From Candidatus Sungiibacteriota bacterium (lineage in GTDB: Bacteria; Patescibacteriota; Minisyncoccia; Sungbacterales; JACQCQ01): a stretch of DNA of 64,000 nucleotides. This document shows positions 332 through 60,641 of the stretch, in pieces. Within the stretch, counting starts at the first letter, position 1. Each line of letters opens with the position of its first letter. The translations under genes and the position numbers were made by a program. The stretch is taken from contig JACQCQ010000002.1 in the NCBI GenBank assembly GCA_016201505.1, forward strand, positions 144,903-208,902, written 5' to 3'. Under the pieces are notes generated by a model. The model was not told the origin of the DNA. It saw only the letters and a program-made list of their open reading frames with translations, and did no database searches.

Positions 332-1321
332 ATGGAAAACTTTGATTTTATGGCGATCGGCGATACGGTGACGGATGCCTTTATCCGGTTAAAGGACGCC
401 TCGGTCAACTGCGACATCAATCGTGAAAACTGCATGATCTGTATGCGCTTTGCCGATAAGATTCCCTACGAGGCAGTCTACATCGTGCCCGCGGTGGGGA
501 ACTCGGCCAATGCCGCGGCCTCGGCCGCGCGGCTTGGTTTAAAAACTGCTTTTGTCTCAAACATCGGCGACGATTATTTTGGTACCGAGTGCCTCAAGGC
601 TTTAAAAGCCGAACAGGTTGATACGCGTTTTGTCGCCGTCCATAAAGGCCAGAAAACAAATTATCACTACGTGCTTTGGTATGAAGATGACCGGACGATT
701 TTAATTAAACATGAAGGCTACGACTATCAATTGCCGGATATTAATTCCCCCAAGTGGATTTATCTTTCGTCACTCGGTGAAAACTCAAGAGACTTTCATG
801 CAGACTTTAGCAGTTATTTAGCGGCGCACCCGGATATTAAATTGGCTTTCCAGCCGGGCACGTATCAAATTAAACTTGGCAAAGAATCGATCGTGAAAAT
901 CTACCAGCGAACGGAAGTATTTTTCTGCAATAAAGAAGAGTATCAGCGCATTTTAGAAACCAGGGAGGAAGATGTGAAAAAGTTAATGGCCATGATGCGC
1001 GAGTTGGGACCAAAGGTTGCCGTCTTAACGGACGGGCCGCGAGGGTCGTATGCTTTTGACGGGGTTAATGGCTGGTATATGCCGGTCTATCCCGATCCTA
1101 AGCCGCCCTATGAGCGGACAGGCGCCGGGGACGCTTTTTCTTCAACATTTACGGCGGCGCTTGTCCTTGGGTTTGATATTCCAACGGCGCTTCGCTGGGG
1201 GCCGATTAACTCCATGTCGGTTGTGCAATATGTCGGAGCGCGGGAAGGTCTCTTAACACGTGAAAAATTGGAAGAGTATCTTAAAAAAGCTCCAGCTGAT
1301 TACCAGCCAAAGAAGATATAA
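332..1321 (+). CDS. pfkB-family carbohydrate kinase (ribokinase/fructokinase-like)
   Basis: 329 aa. C-terminal GAGDAFSSTF motif and N-terminal di-Gly region typical of the pfkB sugar kinase fold. Confidence 0.7.
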   Translation: MENFDFMAIGDTVTDAFIRLKDASVNCDINRENCMICMRFADKIPYEAVYIVPAVGNSANAAASAARLGLKTAFVSNIGDDYFGTECLKALKAEQVDTRFVAVHKGQKTNYHYVLWYEDDRTILIKHEGYDYQLPDINSPKWIYLSSLGENSRDFHADFSSYLAAHPDIKLAFQPGTYQIKLGKESIVKIYQRTEVFFCNKEEYQRILETREEDVKKLMAMMRELGPKVAVLTDGPRGSYAFDGVNGWYMPVYPDPKPPYERTGAGDAFSSTFTAALVLGFDIPTALRWGPINSMSVVQYVGAREGLLTREKLEEYLKKAPADYQPKKI

Positions 1322-1323
1322 TT

Positions 1324-1734
1324 ATGCAAAGCACGAAATCCGAAGCTCGAAATACGAAACAAAGCGAAAAGAATAATATTAGAAATCCCAAACAATACGA
1401 CTTAGAAGAAAGAACTTTAAATTTTGCCAAAAGAGTCCGAAATTTTGTAAAAAAGTTACCACGTAATATCTCGAATATTGAGGATTCAAAACAGATTATT
1501 CGATCATCGGGCTCTATTGGCGCAAACTATATCGAAGCAAACGAGGCCCTAAGCAAAAAAGACTTTGTCATACGAATTAAAATCTCAGGCAAAGAGTCGA
1601 AGGAAACTAGATACTGGCTACGACTTCTTGACAACGGAAATAATTTAGATTTAGAAAATGAATCTGATCAATTAATTCAAGAAGCTACTGAATTAATGAT
1701 GATTTTAAGCTCGATAATGAGAAATTCTTTATAA
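1324..1734 (+). CDS. four-helix-bundle protein (23S rRNA intervening-sequence protein family)
   Basis: 136 aa. RSSGSIGANYIEA...KKDF...SKETRYWL pattern characteristic of the four-helix-bundle protein usually encoded inside rRNA IVSs. The gene is bracketed by perfect inverted repeats (see the cassette feature at 1329..1783). Confidence 0.65.
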   Translation: MQSTKSEARNTKQSEKNNIRNPKQYDLEERTLNFAKRVRNFVKKLPRNISNIEDSKQIIRSSGSIGANYIEANEALSKKDFVIRIKISGKESKETRYWLRLLDNGNNLDLENESDQLIQEATELMMILSSIMRNSL

Positions 1735-1783
1735 TTTATAAATTTTAATTTTGATATTGCTTCGGATTTCGGATTTCGTGCTT
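1329..1783 (+). mobile_element. IVS-like cassette: four-helix-bundle gene bracketed by 16-bp perfect inverted repeats (AAGCACGAAATCCGAA at 1329-1344, reverse complement at 1768-1783)
   Basis: Inverted repeats read directly from the sequence. The right end also carries a tandem CGGATTT duplication. Confidence 0.4.
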
Positions 1784-1790
1784 CGAATTT

Positions 1791-2657
1791 ATGGATAATC
1801 TTAAAACTATATTAGGCAGGGCAAGAGCAGAAGGTTGGTCGATGGGCCATTTTAACGCCTCCGAGTCCGATCAGTTTCGCGCTATTGTGGAGGCGGCAAA
1901 AGAAGTTGGCTCGCCAGCAATTATCGGGACATCCGAAGGCGAGGCGAAGCACGTAGGCAGACTTGAGGCGGTAGCGCTACGCGAGGCCTTTCGCCGCGAA
2001 TTTAATATTCCGGTCTTTTTAAATTGCGATCATCATAAAAGCGTTGCGGCGGCAAAAGAAGCCATTGATGCCGGATATGATTCAATCCATATTGATTTAT
2101 CGGCCGAGCCGTATGAAGCGAATGTTATGGGAACAATGGAGGTTGTGGCCTATGCCAGAGCCAAAGACACGCTGATTAACGTTGAAGGTGAACTCGGCTA
2201 TTTGCGGGGCGAGTCAAAAATTCAAAATGAGAAAATAAAAGTCTCAAAAAAAGACTACACGGATCCGGAGCAAGCCAAAGATTTCGCAGCGCATACCGGC
2301 ATTGACCGGCTGGCCATTGCCGCGGGGAATATTCATGGCATCTCACTGGACGAACCGGATTTGGATATTGACCGAATCAAGGCGATTCGAGCGCTTGTCC
2401 CTCAAAATGTCGCGCTCGTCTTGCATGCCGCATCCGGTATTCACGATAATCAGATACGGGCGGCGATTGAAGCCGGGATTGCAAATATTCACATTAATAC
2501 GGATATCCGAGTTGCGTATACCGAGGCTTTGCGCAATGAGCTAAAAATTGATCCTGCTGAGACGACGCCCTATAAGTTTGATGCCAAAGCCCGTGAGGTT
2601 CTGAAAGATTTAATTAAGCAGAAATTACGATTATTCGGATCGGTAAATAGGATCTAA
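1791..2657 (+). CDS. fba: class II fructose/ketose-bisphosphate aldolase
   Basis: 288 aa. HFNASE, His-rich metal-ligand pattern (HxDH, IHG, HAASG) and overall class II aldolase architecture. Confidence 0.7.
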   Translation: MDNLKTILGRARAEGWSMGHFNASESDQFRAIVEAAKEVGSPAIIGTSEGEAKHVGRLEAVALREAFRREFNIPVFLNCDHHKSVAAAKEAIDAGYDSIHIDLSAEPYEANVMGTMEVVAYARAKDTLINVEGELGYLRGESKIQNEKIKVSKKDYTDPEQAKDFAAHTGIDRLAIAAGNIHGISLDEPDLDIDRIKAIRALVPQNVALVLHAASGIHDNQIRAAIEAGIANIHINTDIRVAYTEALRNELKIDPAETTPYKFDAKAREVLKDLIKQKLRLFGSVNRI

Positions 2658-3647: not shown

Positions 3648-3686
3648 GAGCCCCCGCCCGCGGGCGGGGGCTCTTTCATTTTTTTT
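3648..3686 (+). terminator. rho-independent terminator (GAGCCCCCGCCCGCGGGCGGGGGCTC followed by a T-run)
   Basis: GC-rich perfect hairpin followed by TTTCATTTTTTTT, directly after the dehydrogenase stop codon. Confidence 0.8.
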
Positions 3687-3714: not shown

Positions 3715-4395
3715 ATGATCACTCTTGAAGCTGAACCACGCAGACTGACGGGGAAAGCCGTGAAGCAATTACGCAAGCAGGATCTCCTGCCGGCCGTTTT
3801 ATATGGCGCCAAAACGGCATCCGAACCCATCATGGTGCCGCTTAAGTCTTTTAAAAAGGTTCTTGCCGAAGCCGGTGAATCAACCCTGATTGCTCTTTTG
3901 ATGAAAGGTAAAGAGGTTAATGTCTTGATTCATGATGTCCTGCGTGATCCATTAACCGAGGCGCCGTTGCATGCTGATTTTTTGGCAGTCCAGATGGATA
4001 AAGAAGTTCGCACCAATGTTCCGCTTGAGTTTATGGGCGAGGCGCCCGCTATTCGGGTGGAGCAAGGAGTCTTGGTAAAAGTCATGCATGATATTGAAAT
4101 TTCCGCTCTGCCCGTGGATCTCCCTTCGCACATCAAAGTTAATTTGGCAGTCCTTCTGCATATTCATGATCGGCTGGTCGTAGAGAATTTAAATATTCCC
4201 CAAGGTGTAAAAGTTATTACGCCCGGTGACGAGGTGGTAGTTTTGATCGAGGCGCCGCGATCCGAGGAAGAACTAAAAGCGCTTGAGACCGCCGAGCCAG
4301 CCGCAACCGTTGAAGTTATGACGGAGGCTGAAATCAAAAAGAAGGTTGAAGATGAAGCAGCCGCGGCTACAGGAGAGATTAAGGAGGTTAAGTAA
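3715..4395 (+). CDS. rplY: 50S ribosomal protein L25 / general stress protein Ctc
   Basis: The start at MITLEAEPRRLTGKAVKQLRK... lies downstream of the terminator. L25 N-terminal beta-barrel signature and an acidic C-terminal extension. Confidence 0.75.
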   Translation: MITLEAEPRRLTGKAVKQLRKQDLLPAVLYGAKTASEPIMVPLKSFKKVLAEAGESTLIALLMKGKEVNVLIHDVLRDPLTEAPLHADFLAVQMDKEVRTNVPLEFMGEAPAIRVEQGVLVKVMHDIEISALPVDLPSHIKVNLAVLLHIHDRLVVENLNIPQGVKVITPGDEVVVLIEAPRSEEELKALETAEPAATVEVMTEAEIKKKVEDEAAAATGEIKEVK

Positions 4396-7001: not shown

Positions 7002-7079
7002 TTGGTTGCTGAATACTAATAGCCTAAATTTTAACCAAACTTAAAAACAATCTTAAACTTAGAATTTAGGGTTTCGTAT

Positions 7080-7328
7080 TTAGGATTTTGTTTTCCGGGC
7101 CCGAGGAGCTTTTGTTTGGGTCGCTACGCGCTTTAAGAGCCGTGTCTTATACTTTTCGACGCGGCCGGCGGCGTCAATTAGTTTTGATTTACCAGTATAA
7201 AAAGGGTGACAATTTGAGCAAATTTCAATTTCCAGGTGCTCTTTGATTGACCCGGTCTTAATCGCGTTCCCGCAGGCGCATTTGATCGTCGCCTTATCAA
7301 AATATGTCGGATGAATGACTTCTTTCAT
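7080..7328 (-). CDS. rpmE: 50S ribosomal protein L31 (Zn-ribbon type)
   Basis: 82 aa. MKEVIHPTY..., CxC...CxxCH zinc ligands. Confidence 0.85.
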
Positions 7329-26744: not shown

Positions 26745-29633
26745 ATGCCCGAATCTAGAATTAAGAATAAAGAATTAGGAATTAGGAATAGTGCGAGAGG
26801 TCAAGGCGATTTTATTCGCATCAGGGGGGCTCGCGTCCATAATTTAAAAAGTGTCGATGTCGACATCCCCAAAAACAAATTAGTGGTCATTACCGGCCTT
26901 TCGGGCTCCGGAAAATCGTCACTCGCCTTTGACACTATTTACGCCGAAGCTGAACGACGGTACGTAGAATCACTTTCAGCCTACGCGCGCCAATTTATCG
27001 GCATATCAGACAAGCCGGATGTTGATTCAATCGAAGGACTCTCGCCCGCCATCGCCATCGATCAAAAAAGTGTTCCGCGAAATCCGCGTTCTACCGTCGG
27101 GACTATTACCGAAATCTACGACTATCTCCGAATTATTTTTGCGCGGGTTGGAAAGGCACATTGCCCGTCATGCGCCAAACCGATTGGAAGACAGACGGTC
27201 GGCCAGATCGTGGATCATATATTAAAAGAGAAAAAGTGGTCGGAGGTCCAAGTCTTGGCTCCGCTGGTGCGCGGTAAAAAGGGCGAGCATCGCGGAATCC
27301 TAGAAGAAGTCAAGCGCGCCGGTTTTATTCGCGTCCGGATTGACGGCATTGTACATCGGCTGGAAGAGGCGATTGATTTGCCGATTGATAAACAAAAGAA
27401 GCATTCAATTGAGGTGGTGGTTGATCGGGTTGAAATTGGAAGAGGACTTGAGCGTTCGCGGCTCGCCGATTCTGTCGAGACGGCGTTAAAAATTGGCAAA
27501 GGCCTCGTTATCGTCGCCACGGTCAGCGACAAGCAATCAGTCACAAGCGACAAGGCAAAAGATGAGATTTTCTCCGAGCACTTTGCCTGCCCGGATTGCG
27601 GGATTAATTTATCTGAAATTGAGCCAAGAACGTTTTCATTTAACAGCCCCTATGGCGCCTGTTTCGCGTGCACCGGACTTGGCTCAACGCTTGAGGTTGA
27701 CACCAAATTAGTTTTCCCCAATCCGAAGTTAACGCTGGCGGAAGGTGCGATTGCGCCCTGGTCGCATGCTTCGCATCGCGTAGGCCGTCAATCCTGGTAC
27801 TGGTGGATGTTAGAAGACCTCGCCGATCGGCACAAATTTTCATTGAATAAATCCGTCCAGGATTTGCCGAAGGCCGTAGTGGATTTAGTTTTGCATGGCG
27901 AGAAAAAAAATGCGGCAGAGGGCGAGACAACATTTGAGGGCGTGGTGCCAAATTTAAAACGCAGATGGAAGGAAACGGATTCTGAATGGACACGGGCTGA
28001 GATTGAAAAATATATGCTGATTCAGACGTGTCCGTTATGCCAGGGGCGCCGGCTAAAACCAGAGACTCTAGCAATTACCGTGGCTTTCCGCAACATCGCC
28101 GACATTTCGGAAATGACTGTGCGCGAGTCGCTCGAGTTTTTTTTCGATCTGCCGAAAGAACTTTCAGCTAATGATGCCAAGATCGCCGGACCTTTGGCGA
28201 AAGAAATCCTGAAACGACTTCAGTTTTTGACGAATGTGGGACTGCATTATTTGACGCTCTCGCGTGAATCCACTACGCTCGCCGGCGGCGAGGCGCAGCG
28301 CATTCGACTTGCCACGCAAATCGGCTCGAGGCTCACCGGCGTCATTTATGTTTTAGATGAGCCTTCAATCGGACTTCACGCCGAAGATCATCATAGGCTG
28401 ATCGAGACCTTAAAAGAACTGCGCGATCTTGGGAATACCGTCATTGTGGTTGAACATGATGCCGAAACCATGAGACAGGCGGATTGGATTATTGATTTGG
28501 GTCCGGGTGCGGGCAAACACGGCGGCGAGGTAATTTTTACGGGAGATGCTAAGGCCTTGAGGAGAGCAAAAACTCTTACCGCGGACTATATTTCCGGCCG
28601 CAAAGAAGTTGAGATTAAACATGCGCATCGGAGTGGGAATGGATTGAAACTCGAAATTCTCGGCGCCAAAGAACACAACTTAAAAGATATTGATGTCAAA
28701 ATCCCGCTGGGCATGTTTGTCTCGGTTTCGGGTCCGTCCGGCTCGGGCAAATCAACGCTGATTAACGACATTTTGGCCAAGGCTTTGCTGAAGAGCCTGT
28801 ATCAGGCGCATACGATTCCCGGCCGGCATGATGCGATTGTCGGTCTTGAACATTTAGATAAAGTGGTCGTGGTGGATCAATCGCCGATTGGCAGAACGCC
28901 CAGATCCAATCCCGCGACCTATACCGGAGTTTTTGGTTTGATCCGCGATATTTTTTCCAAAACTGCCGAAGCACGCGCCCGAGGCTATGTTCCCGGCCGG
29001 TTTTCATTTAATGTCAAAGGCGGCCGGTGTGAAGTCTGCGAGGGGCAGGGTGTCAAAAAAATTGAGATGTATTTCTTGCCCGATGTTTATGTGGACTGCG
29101 AGGAGTGCCACGGGAAAAGATACAGCCGCGAGGCGCTTGAGATTTTATATAACGGTAAAAATATTGCTGATGTTTTAGATTTGACGGTTGAAGAGGCGCT
29201 TAGATTCTTTGAGGCTATTCCGGGGATTAAACAAAAGTTAAAGACGCTCTCCGATGTCGGCCTTTCGTATGTAAAGCTTGGCCAATCGGCCACGACGTTA
29301 TCCGGCGGGGAAGCCCAGCGCATTAAATTAGCCGCCGAACTTTCGCGTCGCGACACCGGTAAAACACTTTATATATTGGATGAGCCGACAACCGGACTTC
29401 ACTTTGAAGACATTCGAAAATTGCTCACCGTTTTGCACGCCCTCGCCGACAAAGGCAATACCGTGCTGGTGATTGAGCACAATTTAGACGTCATTCGTAA
29501 TTCAGACTATGTGATTGATTTGGGTCCGGAGGGCGGAGCGGCCGGAGGGGAAGTCGTGGCCGAAGGAACTCCGGCGGAAATTATGGAAATAAAAAACAGT
29601 TTAACCGGGAAGTGGCTGAAGAAAACAGGCTAA
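26745..29633 (+). CDS. uvrA: excinuclease ABC subunit A
   Basis: Two ABC ATPase modules (GLSGSGKSS and GPSGSGKST), zinc-finger Cys pairs, LSGGE signature twice. Start taken at MPESR; the track ORF starts at 26715. Confidence 0.9.
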
Positions 29634-30403: not shown

Positions 30404-30430
30404 TTAGCAGTCGATAAAGTTGAGTGCTAA
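30404..30430 (+). promoter_or_regulatory. CIRCE operator (TTAGCAGTC-N9-GAGTGCTAA), the HrcA binding site
   Basis: One mismatch from the TTAGCACTC-N9-GAGTGCTAA consensus, in the classical position downstream of the groES promoter. Confidence 0.8.
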
Positions 30431-30443
30431 TCTTTTAATTAAA

Positions 30444-30521
30444 GCTGACAGTCTGCCGACTACCGTCTACAGCCCCGCCTGGTATGTGCTGTAGTCTATA
30501 GTCTGTCGTCTGTAGACAGAC
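30444..30521 (+). promoter_or_regulatory. GACTACAG/GTCTACAG-word structured leader element, groES copy
   Basis: GCTGACAGTCTGCCGACTACCGTCTACAGC...GCTGTAGTCTATAGTCTGTCGTCTGTAGACAGAC. Self-complementary words GTCTACAG/CTGTAGAC, ending 3 nt before the ATG. Confidence 0.5.
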
Positions 30522-30845: not shown

Positions 30846-32627
<1,782 letters not shown>

Positions 32628-55570: not shown

Positions 55571-55637
55571 GCTACAGCTGACGGACTACAGACCACAGGA
55601 CGGTAGTCAGTAGACGGTAGACTGTAGTTGCAAAAAA
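55571..55637 (+). promoter_or_regulatory. structured leader element, dnaK copy
   Basis: GCTACAGCTGACGGACTACAGACCACAGGACGGTAGTCAGTAGACGGTAGACTGTAGTTGCAAAAAA immediately 5' of the ATG. Same word set as the groEL and recA copies. Confidence 0.5.
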
Positions 55638-60240: not shown

Positions 60241-60641
60241 GATACGTATCAATTTAATCTAACAAGATTTAAAGCGTATCAATCTAGTAATACTAAAAAT
60301 TTATGTTAAACAGCAATTTCGTTATTCTGTTATAACGATAGAACGTATTACTTAATTAACCATAAGGAATTTTTAGTATAGTTATGAAAAATCTAATCAA
60401 TAATTTATAAAACAATATAAAATCCTGATTTTTGTCTGAACAAAGCCTGCCGAACTATCAGGGGTCAACTAAATGGGCAAAGCAGAGTTACCGGACCAGC
60501 CAGAGCCGGCATTTTTTTAAAATGGGGGATCGAAAAATTTGAAAAATTAAAATTTTTACTATTCTTTCGTAACTTATCCACATAAAAGAATTGACGCAGA
60601 AGCAGTATCATAAAGATACGCTGACGTATCAAGATGGAGCT
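60241..60641. repeat. AT-rich (about 30% GC) spacer carrying repeated palindromic GATACGTATC(AA) / CGTATCAA motifs at 60241, 60277 and 60617-60638; further copies lie inside the downstream gene at 61023 and 60985
   Basis: Four occurrences of the 8-mer CGTATCAA within about 800 bp. A GATACG-CTG-ACGTATC dyad overlaps the start codon of the giant gene. Confidence 0.5.

Follow-up and report, generated by a model that had tools for sequence, protein, structure and literature searches.

Knowledge of intervening sequences (IVS) in rRNA genes and of their S23p open reading frames (ORFs) dates back to the early 1990s (PMC4990558). In 23S rRNA, S23p-bearing IVS are found in Leptospira, Coxiella burnetii and Haemophilus (PMC4990558 and work it cites). 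They occupy apical loops of 23S helices, and their excision by RNase III leaves the 23S rRNA in fragments. The Coxiella IVS combines an S23p ORF with a 28-bp terminal stem, cut in vitro by RNase III, and with tandem heptamers 5' of the ATG (PMC4990558). IVS have long been suspected of being mobile or selfish elements.

Tandem heptamer arrays form another group of sequences, of which the cyanobacterial STRR repeats are one type. Others have repeatedly been reported as unexplained (PMC2700814, PMC4692102, PMC4679880), comprising GGGAATC arrays in Xanthomonas (PMC4692102), TAACTGA arrays in Beggiatoaceae, Cyanobacteria and Bacteroidetes (PMC4679880), and four tandem heptanucleotides in Geobacter metallireducens (PMC2700814). 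As described there, such arrays consist of about four 7-nt units, are intergenic, often end just 5' of a start codon and frequently occur as convergent inverted pairs, with a patchy phyletic distribution that suggests horizontal spread. Avd, the accessory protein of diversity-generating retroelements (DGRs), is a pentamer that binds nucleic acids and reverse transcriptase (RT). The protein family PF05635 is homologous to Avd (PMC10053308).

The locus described here lies in a 64-kb stretch of a Candidatus Sungiibacteriota genome, referred to as the window, and resembles each of these systems in part. With the 23S rRNA IVS it shares a PF05635 protein, a similar size (~430-760 nt), terminal inverted repeats arranged as a long stem around the ORF (here a predicted stem) and tandem heptamers 5' of the ORF start (GACAGAT in Coxiella). 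Unlike an IVS, it is situated between two protein-coding operon genes in a window without rRNA. Its arrays, which resemble the published ones in number of units and position, bracket a PF05635 gene, whereas the searchable text of those reports names no such gene or protein. The encoded protein has the homologous four-helix-bundle fold of Avd from Bordetella phage BPP-1 (bAvd), and the solved relatives 2RLD and 2GSC are five-chain entries; unlike the Avd of a DGR, it has no adjacent RT, template repeat or variable repeat. Terminal inverted repeats (TIRs), short ORF-less forms that keep both ends, and the coexistence of filled and empty sites recall MITEs and other non-autonomous TIR elements, from which the locus differs in having tandem heptamer arrays as ends, no consistent target-site duplication and no transposase partner. 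Similarly, REP/BIME sequences are intra-operon palindromes that lie between co-directional genes and are co-transcribed (read-through being inferred here), but they are unrelated in sequence, and lack heptamer periodicity and an enclosed protein gene; no RAYT-type transposase is linked to the present arms. The features of the locus are as follows.

332 to 1321, forward strand: pfkB-family sugar kinase gene (PF00294, E 1e-32), with its TAA stop at 1319-1321
1322 to 1328, forward strand: junction TTATGCA from the pfkB stop to the element, holding an ATG at 1324-1326; boundary placed by the anchored family alignment
1324 to 1734, forward strand: intact gene of a 136-aa four-helix-bundle protein, PF05635/TIGR02436 (S23p/Avd-like)
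1329 to 1363, forward strand: 5' arm, four heptamers and an AAACAAA anchor (AAGCACG AAATCCG AAGCTCG AAATACG AAACAAA), translated in frame
1329 to 1344, forward strand: left copy of a perfect 16-nt inverted repeat, AAGCACGAAATCCGAA
1369 to 1371, forward strand: canonical start-codon position of the family, here AAG (Lys16), not ATG
1735 to 1757, forward strand: AT-rich inner 3' segment from the stop codon to the 3' arm, corresponding in degenerate form to the inner palindrome of the family
1758 to 1790, forward strand: 3' arm (TGCTTCG GATTTCG GATTTCG TGCTTCG AATTT), complementary and inverted relative to the 5' arm
1768 to 1783, forward strand: right copy of the perfect 16-nt inverted repeat, TTCGGATTTCGTGCTT, the exact reverse complement of the left copy
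1791 to 2657, forward strand: class II fructose-bisphosphate aldolase gene, fba (PF01116, E 2.5e-73)
7056 to 7083, reverse strand: solo arm of the heptamer family (CTAAAT/CGAAAT units), with no PF05635-type gene adjacent

The genes are packed stop to start as originally claimed, with pfkB ending at 1321, the ORF running from 1324 to its stop at 1734 and fba starting at 1791; the Pfam match of fba begins at residue 3, which identifies 1791 as the true fba start. An identical junction is carried by two independent Logan assemblies (SRR12113410 and SRR12113409), ruling out an assembly artefact. Within the cassette no promoter-like or terminator-like site was found, and covariance models of Rfam 15 gave no match on 1200-1900 at E up to 1. 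Searches of the 64-kb window returned neither a second copy of the gene (tblastn) nor rRNA (Rfam). The GC content of the cassette, 0.31-0.36, lies below the window mean of 0.484. A separate low-GC island at 60.0-61.0 kb, considered as a possible cassette-related sequence, was rejected as such: it is an AT-rich intergenic region 5' of an HTH-domain gene.

The 16-bp perfect inverted repeats on which the original prediction was built are present on either side of the gene. In the whole window the 16-mer has three matches with up to two mismatches, namely the two perfect arms and 1343-1358 (two mismatches), compared with 0.11 expected from shuffling, and none of 100 shuffles reaches three. A repeat search widens the pair to 28-nt arms at 1324-1351 and 1761-1788 that are 82% complementary, and returns alternative registers as well. 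Each arm is longer than this, at roughly 34 nt and four heptamers, and matches its partner best over the 16-bp repeat; the 3' arm stops directly before the fba ATG. The tandem CGGATTT duplication noted at the right end is real (TRF: 1761-1778, period 7, 2.6 copies, 100%) but not a special event, since both arms are arrays of 7-nt units and the duplication is part of one. In the minimum-free-energy fold of the plus strand, the 5' arm pairs with the 3' arm (z -4.4) and the ORF is closed in the loop; the local fold of the solo arm at 7056-7083 has no significance. The pentanucleotide TTATG at 1322-1326 recurs at 1789-1793, forming a candidate 5-bp target duplication that includes the fba start codon.

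The 136-aa ORF matches PF05635 at 61.5 bits (cut-off 33.8; E 1.1e-16) and TIGR02436 at 80.2 bits (cut-off 24; E 1.2e-22). Among solved structures, 2RLD matches at E 1.8e-16, or E 4e-40 with a broader profile, which also recovers 2GSC (XCC0516) at E 0.009. All 42 invariant columns of alignment A1 are shared by the protein, and NCBI lists an identical sequence from a Candidatus Sungbacteria MAG under the name four helix bundle protein. The ORF in use begins at an ATG 2 nt past the pfkB stop and passes through the stop-free 5' arm. Overlap of the left repeat with codons 3-7 of the gene, as first described, arises because this copy has lost the canonical ATG, now AAG. In the protein alignment most homologues have Met in the Lys16 column, the 121-aa forms begin there, and nucleotide comparison of the 5' regions agrees with a canonical start at 1369-1371. 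Most homologues have the arm upstream of the true start, and third codon positions hold no excess of the variation in the apparent N-terminal extension.

The same architecture recurs at ~78 homologous loci in many phyla, both arms of a locus carrying the same 7-mer variant. The arm consensus is four tandem 7-mers (CGAAATY) followed by AAACAA. Cognate arms align better than any shuffle in 55 of the 78 loci, and arm types are strongly concordant (40 CGAAA/CGAAA, 11 CTAAA/CTAAA and only 2 discordant; Fisher p 2e-9), while the CTAAA type is scattered on the protein tree and needs at least five changes. Pairing in the anchored alignment amounts to 84.5% for the arm helix, compared with 43.2% for the flanks, and each of the four heptamer G positions shows double changes from G:C to U:A. 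The covariation score lies above 500 of 500 shuffles, and shifting the partner columns makes the pairing collapse. Across these loci the partner arm is both conserved and co-varying; the inverted repeat is not the coding-constrained coincidence that the original prediction had named as a possible refutation. Among arm mismatches G:U (156) is no more frequent than A:C (189), so nothing specifically favours constraint at the RNA level over the DNA level. In mixed-type elements the T-type units are not opposite one another, and the two observations together mean that strict RNA-level base-pair compensation is not demonstrated. An interpretation of the G/T position as protein specificity was dropped because arm type does not follow protein clade (identity 0.659 within types, 0.645 between types). 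The original statement that rRNA IVS are the normal location of genes for this protein family does not hold for the present subfamily: rRNA motifs were absent from each of the 80 closest genome loci, and a gathering-score Rfam scan of 40 of those 80 gave no match.

The closest homologues, at 55-70% amino acid identity, come from Patescibacteria, Planctomycetota, Desulfobacterota, Omnitrophota, Nitrospirota, Bacteroidota, Gammaproteobacteria and others. Their genomic neighbours are diverse, with 60 clusters among 72 upstream proteins and 64 among 72 downstream proteins, and insertions are found at the stop/start junctions of unrelated operons such as ruvA|ruvB, livH|livM and accB|accC. Neighbouring genes are co-directional upstream in 70 of 74 loci and downstream in 61 of 73, with a median of 3 nt between the upstream stop and the arm. 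The flanks of homologous loci hold 12 ORF-less miniature elements (106-161 nt) and 31 solo arms. Cassette GC is lower than flank GC in 76 of 76 loci and correlates with host GC (r 0.85); the correlation indicates that many copies are long-term residents and that constraint, not recent arrival, may explain the low GC. When target duplication was tested family-wide, shared 5-mers were found in 6 of 27 cases (2.3 expected), and 3-, 4- and 6-mers were not enriched. No single genome was found to hold near-identical copies at separate sites; three Nostoc flagelliforme copies lie within larger duplicated plasmid segments and are therefore uninformative on the exact ends. No relatives were detected in the viral contigs of IMG/VR, and accordingly no vector was identified. 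No transposase adjoins the loci whose neighbours were examined, the 136-aa four-helix-bundle protein being the only ORF of the cassette; it has no known catalytic motif, and no recombinase is present.

Comparison of the pfkB-fba junction among relatives drew on 56 metagenomic sequences with pfkB-fba-2-Hacid_dh-L25 synteny. In at least 10 of them the junction is empty, the pfkB stop either overlapping the fba start (ATGA) or being separated from it by a 6-8-nt gap. The closest relatives (74% and 73% FBA identity) carry ORF-less hairpins of 115-176 nt at this junction, one of which keeps the family start region, CAAATTCCAATGACC, and the folds of these junction hairpins reach z -4.7 to -6.7. In one relative, a family member of 37% identity separates fba from the gene that follows it. 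Junctions were thus empty or occupied by an ORF-less hairpin, and none held the gene without the repeats; the proposal of an IVS-type cassette inserted between pfkB and fba is backed by these empty junctions and hairpin derivatives. Hairpin types differ at one and the same junction among close relatives, which may reflect ancient residence and concerted change rather than repeated insertion.

That the repeat arose by chance or coding constraint around an ordinary resident gene has in its favour the position of the left arm inside the annotated ORF of the pfkB-fba copy. The probability of this reading is practically nil, and we consider it ruled out by the shuffles, the covarying partner arm and the empty sites in relatives; the location of the arm 5' of the true start in most homologues and the absence of third-position bias point the same way. 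It is also very improbable that the gene is an Avd accessory gene of a DGR, as its homology to Avd might suggest: the genes within ~3 kb are pfkB, fba, 2-Hacid_dh (2-hydroxyacid dehydrogenase) and L25, no RT or template repeat/variable repeat (TR/VR) pair occurs over that distance, and the heptamer arms are the only repeats of the region. A DGR component was rejected on these grounds, as was an integron cassette, in view of repeats at both ends and no integrase among the neighbours looked at. A MITE-like TIR element mobilised in trans, by a conventional transposase from another locus, with the gene as passenger and the arms as ordinary TIRs, would explain the inverted termini, the ORF-less miniature elements, the filled and empty sites and the possible TTATG duplication around the pfkB-fba copy. 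We regard it as improbable, given the lack of both a consistent target-site duplication and, at the loci whose neighbours were examined, an adjoining transposase, and given that the supposed cargo is always one gene family although its subfamilies are very distant and differ in their heptamers (CGAAATC, AAAGCGN, TTAGCAA, TTCAAAA, AATCGTA and GGGAATC, with GACAGAT in Coxiella). Furthermore, we know of no IS terminus that resembles arms of four tandem heptamers.

A resident regulatory device, as opposed to a parasite, is rather unlikely in our estimation. The arrays would be operator or RNA sites of a pentameric protein, serving autoregulation, control of the translation or stability of genes whose start codons closely follow solo arrays or miniature elements and, at pfkB|fba, the tuning of a glycolytic operon; autoregulation through its own arms is suggested because the canonical AUG lies inside the stem. 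The fixed number of four units per arm, the invariant CGAAA core, arms that end a few nucleotides from neighbouring stop or start codons, solo arms and miniature elements at other gene starts, and the binding properties of the homologue Avd are all consistent with such a role. Published arrays (TAACTGA and those of Geobacter) were likewise proposed as regulator sites directly 5' of start codons (PMC4679880, PMC2700814). Against this, the neighbours share no functional theme, presence varies among close relatives at a single junction, insertions into rRNA helices are left unaccounted for, and spread across phyla at 55-70% identity together with systematically low GC suits a mobile element better. 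The regulatory and mobile-element readings are not mutually exclusive.

We consider it probable that the sequence at 1329-1790 represents one copy of a palindromic cassette of the IVS type that is widespread and spreads horizontally, is transcribed by read-through, folds into a stem and is propagated or maintained by its own protein. Read-through would start from pfkB, and in the transcript the long stem would draw the pfkB stop and the fba start together, an arrangement by which the polar cost of a 469-nt insertion would be limited. By analogy with rRNA IVS, the arm stem is probably a substrate of RNase III. The protein would be made from the ATG at 1324, coupled to termination of pfkB translation, because the canonical ATG is mutated to AAG. 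This pentamer-type protein probably recognises the heptamer arrays and acts as the element's own propagation or maintenance factor.

The cassette type appears to link rRNA intervening sequences to several 7-base repeat families. In Xanthomonas, the XCC0516-type gene between accB and accC has inverted GGGAATC arrays on both sides, which ties the heptamer repeats to the PF05635 gene family. We tentatively suggest, at somewhat less than even confidence, a single cross-phylum superfamily in which PF05635 genes would be the autonomous, ORF-bearing members with inverted ends of about four tandem heptamers. IVS, operon-junction cassettes, and ORF-less hairpins or solo arrays (GGGAATC, TAACTGA, Geobacter, STRR-like) would then be forms of one element, and each pentameric protein would recognise the heptamer of its subfamily and propagate or maintain the element by a mechanism unlike that of known transposases.

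The locus and its relatives indicate that S23p IVS and heptamer arrays are facets of one family, with ORF-bearing and miniature forms and strikingly precise insertion at operon stop/start junctions in many phyla. If true, this would account for the "four helix bundle protein" annotations, which number in the thousands, and for the spurious N-terminal extensions of these entries, and the Xanthomonas accB-XCC0516-accC locus would provide a culturable test system for an old question. Mobile or regulatory elements that encode a relative of Avd, the DGR protein, would in that case constitute a new class.

The inverted repeat described in the original prediction was confirmed: AAGCACGAAATCCGAA lies at 1329-1344, and 1768-1783 holds its exact reverse complement. 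With up to two mismatches allowed, the 64-kb window contains three matches to the 16-mer, whereas dinucleotide-preserving shuffles give an expectation of 0.11. This 16-mer corresponds to the place where two heptamer units match perfectly, one register apart, within longer arrays that form the two arms of an element whose limits (1329-1790) were set by family consensus alignment. The CGGATTT repeat reported at the right end is present as well, as part of this heptamer array rather than as a separate duplication event. The locus was reproduced by two independent Logan assemblies, and its features are as follows.

332-1321: pfkB-family kinase gene, with its stop 2 nt ahead of the ATG of the four-helix-bundle ORF
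1324-1734: four-helix-bundle ORF, 136 aa, with PF05635 and TIGR02436 matches
1329-1363: 5' arm, an array of 7-nt units, AAGCACG AAATCCG AAGCTCG AAATACG AAACAAA
1758-1790: 3' arm, an array of 7-nt units, TGCTTCG GATTTCG GATTTCG TGCTTCG AATTT
1791-2657: class II aldolase gene (fba), with its ATG directly after the right repeat

The 136-aa product matches PF05635 (23S_rRNA_IVP; E 1.1e-16), TIGR02436 ("four helix bundle protein"; E 1.2e-22) and the solved five-chain structure 2RLD (E 1.8e-16; broader profile, E 4e-40), and NCBI lists the exact protein, from a Candidatus Sungbacteria MAG, under the name four helix bundle protein. Protein alignment places a Met at the column of window residue 16 in most homologues, and 121-aa forms begin there. 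This canonical ATG of the family is AAG in the window copy (1369-1371), and the sole in-frame ATG, at 1324, follows the pfkB stop by 2 nt and sits immediately outside the element, so the 5' arm falls inside the coding sequence. The longer forms in databases (136-170 aa) arise by reading through the heptamer arm, which has no stop codon, from any available upstream start. Additionally, TTATG occurs at 1322-1326 and again at 1789-1793, a pair that could be a 5-bp target duplication copying the fba start codon; in that event, the upstream copy would initiate the cassette ORF while the downstream copy would still start fba. Across the family, flanking 5-mer duplications were enriched (6 of 27, against 2.3 expected), but those of 3, 4 and 6 nt were not. 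Elsewhere in the window, the 5' end of uvrA (26757-26789) carries an (AGAATTA) x 4.7 tandem heptamer array that is readable in frame as an N-terminal extension, resembling the arm read-through of the cassette ORF.

In a genome-collection scan, 80 loci were recovered whose products share 55-70% identity with the window protein; they span several Patescibacteria classes, Planctomycetota, Desulfobacterota, Omnitrophota, Nitrospirota, Bacteroidota, Gammaproteobacteria, Acidobacteriota and others. These loci share an upstream plan, (T)AAATYCG AARYWCG AAWWYCG AAATYCG AAACAAATTCAAATG, whose ATG is the canonical start of the 121-aa protein, and a downstream plan that mirrors the upstream arm and ends ...CGRATTT(A). 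Inverted-repeat alignment of cognate 5' and 3' flanks exceeded every shuffle in 55 of 78 non-redundant loci. More distant family members carry other heptamers, including AAAGCGN, TTAGCAA and GGCAAAA (relatives' loci L137, L056b and L079b, respectively), (TTCAAAA)4 in Nostoc, AATCCCC/AATCGTA in Planktothrix and TAACTGT-like units in Chondrinema; the published Coxiella IVS heptamer is GACAGAT (PMC4990558). A second hairpin family, built from GACTACA/CTGTAGT heptamers, lies in the window directly 5' of the groES, groEL and dnaK starts (30447-30520, 30862-30937 and 55571-55630; RNA fold z -2.9, -3.7 and -2.8, respectively), and may represent a heat-shock-related RNA element or minis, that is, ORF-less derivatives, of another heptamer family. 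Just ahead of the groES hairpin is a CIRCE-like operator, TTAGCAGTC-N9-GAGTGCTAA (30404-30430), with one mismatch to the consensus.

The two arms change together. When 27 elements were aligned without gaps, with the AAACAA motif as anchor, 84.5% of cells were paired over 34 arm positions versus 43.2% over 9 flanking positions; pairing dropped to 45-53% when the partner was slid by one column, and the arm covariation score exceeded all 500 shuffles. A CTAAA variant, in which all CGAAA units are changed, is present in both arms together (40 G/G, 11 T/T and 2 discordant; Fisher p 2e-9), so that each of the four heptamer G positions shows a G:C to U:A double change. The variant is scattered on the protein tree, with at least five changes, and within-type and between-type identities are equal, indicating that the arms change in concert independently of protein clade. 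This constraint may reflect an RNA or DNA hairpin requirement, or both arms may be arrays of one putative protein-binding site. Because arm mismatches show no G:U excess (156 G:U vs 189 A:C) and T-type units in mixed-type elements are not opposite one another, these data do not separate the two readings.

Several signatures of a mobile or selfish element are seen across the family. Neighbours are unrelated (60 clusters among 72 upstream proteins, 64 among 72 downstream proteins), and cassettes occur inside classical operons (ruvA/ruvB, livH/livM, RND adaptor/permease and accB/accC); a published example sits between cmr3 and cmr2 (PMC3936711). At L139, a locus on Anabaena cylindrica PCC 7122 plasmid pANACY.01, a four-helix-bundle gene with AGTAAAA heptamer arrays (1192-1539) lies between cas2 and cas1 in the opposite orientation, echoing the published tie of the family to cas loci (PMC3936711). 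Most cassettes are co-directional with their neighbours (upstream gene, 70 of 74 cases; downstream gene, 61 of 73). The median distance between the upstream stop and the left arm is 3 nt, and that from the cassette stop codon to the downstream start, just outside the right arm, is 84 nt. Cassette GC is below flank GC in all 76 loci (means 0.37 vs 0.48; 0.32 vs 0.49 in the window) and tracks it (r 0.85), so low GC is a family trait and no proof of recent arrival. The only other low-GC island in the window, unrelated to the cassette, is a 400-nt AT-rich intergenic region (60241-60636; GC about 0.30-0.35) 5' of a gene with an excisionase-like helix-turn-helix at its product start. Flanks of homologous loci yielded 12 more minis (106-161 nt) that retain both arms and the start-codon region, together with 31 solo arms. 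Of these, one lies in the window (7056-7083, minus strand), with CTAAAT/CGAAAT heptamers, no adjoining four-helix-bundle gene and a local fold that is not significant (z -1.25). Satellite-like amplification of single arms adjoins the cassette at two relatives' loci, with four tandem copies at 132-nt spacing in L049 (3618-4041) and eight at alternating 55/109-nt spacing in L072 (3585-4267). No transposase, recombinase or reverse transcriptase was associated with the element.

Comparison of the pfkB-fba junction in relatives supports insertion. A metagenome scan with the aldolase protein returned 56 loci (58-74% identity), and the pfkB-fba-2-Hacid_dh-L25 order is kept in most of those long enough to show neighbours. 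The site is empty in at least ten loci, where the stop of pfkB and the start of fba overlap (..AAGAAAATATGAATTTA..) or are 6-8 nt apart. The closest relatives carry ORF-less heptamer palindromes at the junction: one has a 176-nt gap with a CTAAAT-type element retaining the family start region (CAAATTCCAATGACC) and its 3' counterpart, and two others have 115-134-nt palindromes made from other heptamers, all folding into long hairpins (z -4.7 to -6.7). In another relative, a family member of 37% identity sits between fba and the gene that follows it. Ordering relatives by aldolase identity interleaves filled, mini and empty states, a pattern that indicates repeated gain or loss at this operon. 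In one relative, L093, a 756-nt insert at the junction (1659-2415) contains two small ORFs that by eye resemble a toxin-antitoxin pair; others have 277-1552-nt inserts there, making it a general hotspot.

These comparisons uphold, with corrections, the main reading of a mobilised IVS-type cassette inserted at pfkB-fba. This subfamily contradicts the accompanying statement that rRNA IVSs are where such proteins are normally encoded, since rRNA motifs were absent from all homologous loci checked and neither 40 of these loci nor the window cassette gave any Rfam match. Other family members have been published within IVSs, including CPR 16S and 23S insertions, and RNase III cuts the terminal stems of the IVSs of Coxiella, Leptospira and Salmonella (PMC4990558).

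Promoter-like and terminator-like sites are both absent from the window cassette, which, together with the orientation bias, argues that it would be transcribed by read-through from the operon. In the predicted fold of the plus-strand RNA (minimum free energy -108 kcal/mol, z -4.4), the two arms pair with each other around the ORF; the minus-strand fold is less significant (z -2.6). The predicted stem would bring the pfkB stop beside the fba start, a plausible reason why overlapping stop/start junctions tolerate insertions, and, by analogy with the IVS stems above, would probably be cleaved by RNase III. As a working hypothesis, we propose that the heptamer arrays are bound by the encoded protein, based on the constant number of units in each arm (four), an invariant CGAAA core, heptamers that differ by subfamily, and the homology of PF05635 to Avd, a nucleic-acid-binding DGR protein (PMC10053308). 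Downstream, a strong terminator-like hairpin (3648-3673; 11-bp stem with 10 G-C pairs and a T-run), at which the pfkB-fba-dehydrogenase unit may terminate, falls inside the mechanically called L25 ORF (3628-4395), so the true L25 start is probably near 3715.

Using a 62-residue XCC0516 fragment recovered from a PDB alignment (2GSC) as a query, we located the corresponding gene in Xanthomonas campestris between accB and accC. Its upstream arm reads GGGAATC GGGAGTG GAGAATC GGGAATC and its downstream arm CCCATTC CCCATTC TCGACTC CCTATTC CC, with the ATG of accC immediately after it. No other GGGAATC-type arrays occur in 4.3 kb, and the flanks give an inverted-repeat score of 48 against a shuffle maximum of 22. 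Xanthomonas GGGAATC arrays have been published as G-quadruplex-forming repeats, with 70-75 convergent pairs per genome and no function assigned; the searchable text of that report does not mention the XCC0516-type gene (PMC4692102). Comparable arrays, likewise unexplained, with four or five heptamers and frequently paired or just 5' of start codons, have been reported in Geobacter metallireducens (PMC2700814) and in Beggiatoaceae, Cyanobacteria and Bacteroidetes (PMC4679880). No paper joining heptamer repeats to PF05635 genes was found in the searchable open-access literature. The protein family and its rRNA IVS form are already known; what appears to be new is the form at operon junctions, with arms of four heptamers, together with its miniature derivatives and the tie to the heptamer-repeat literature.
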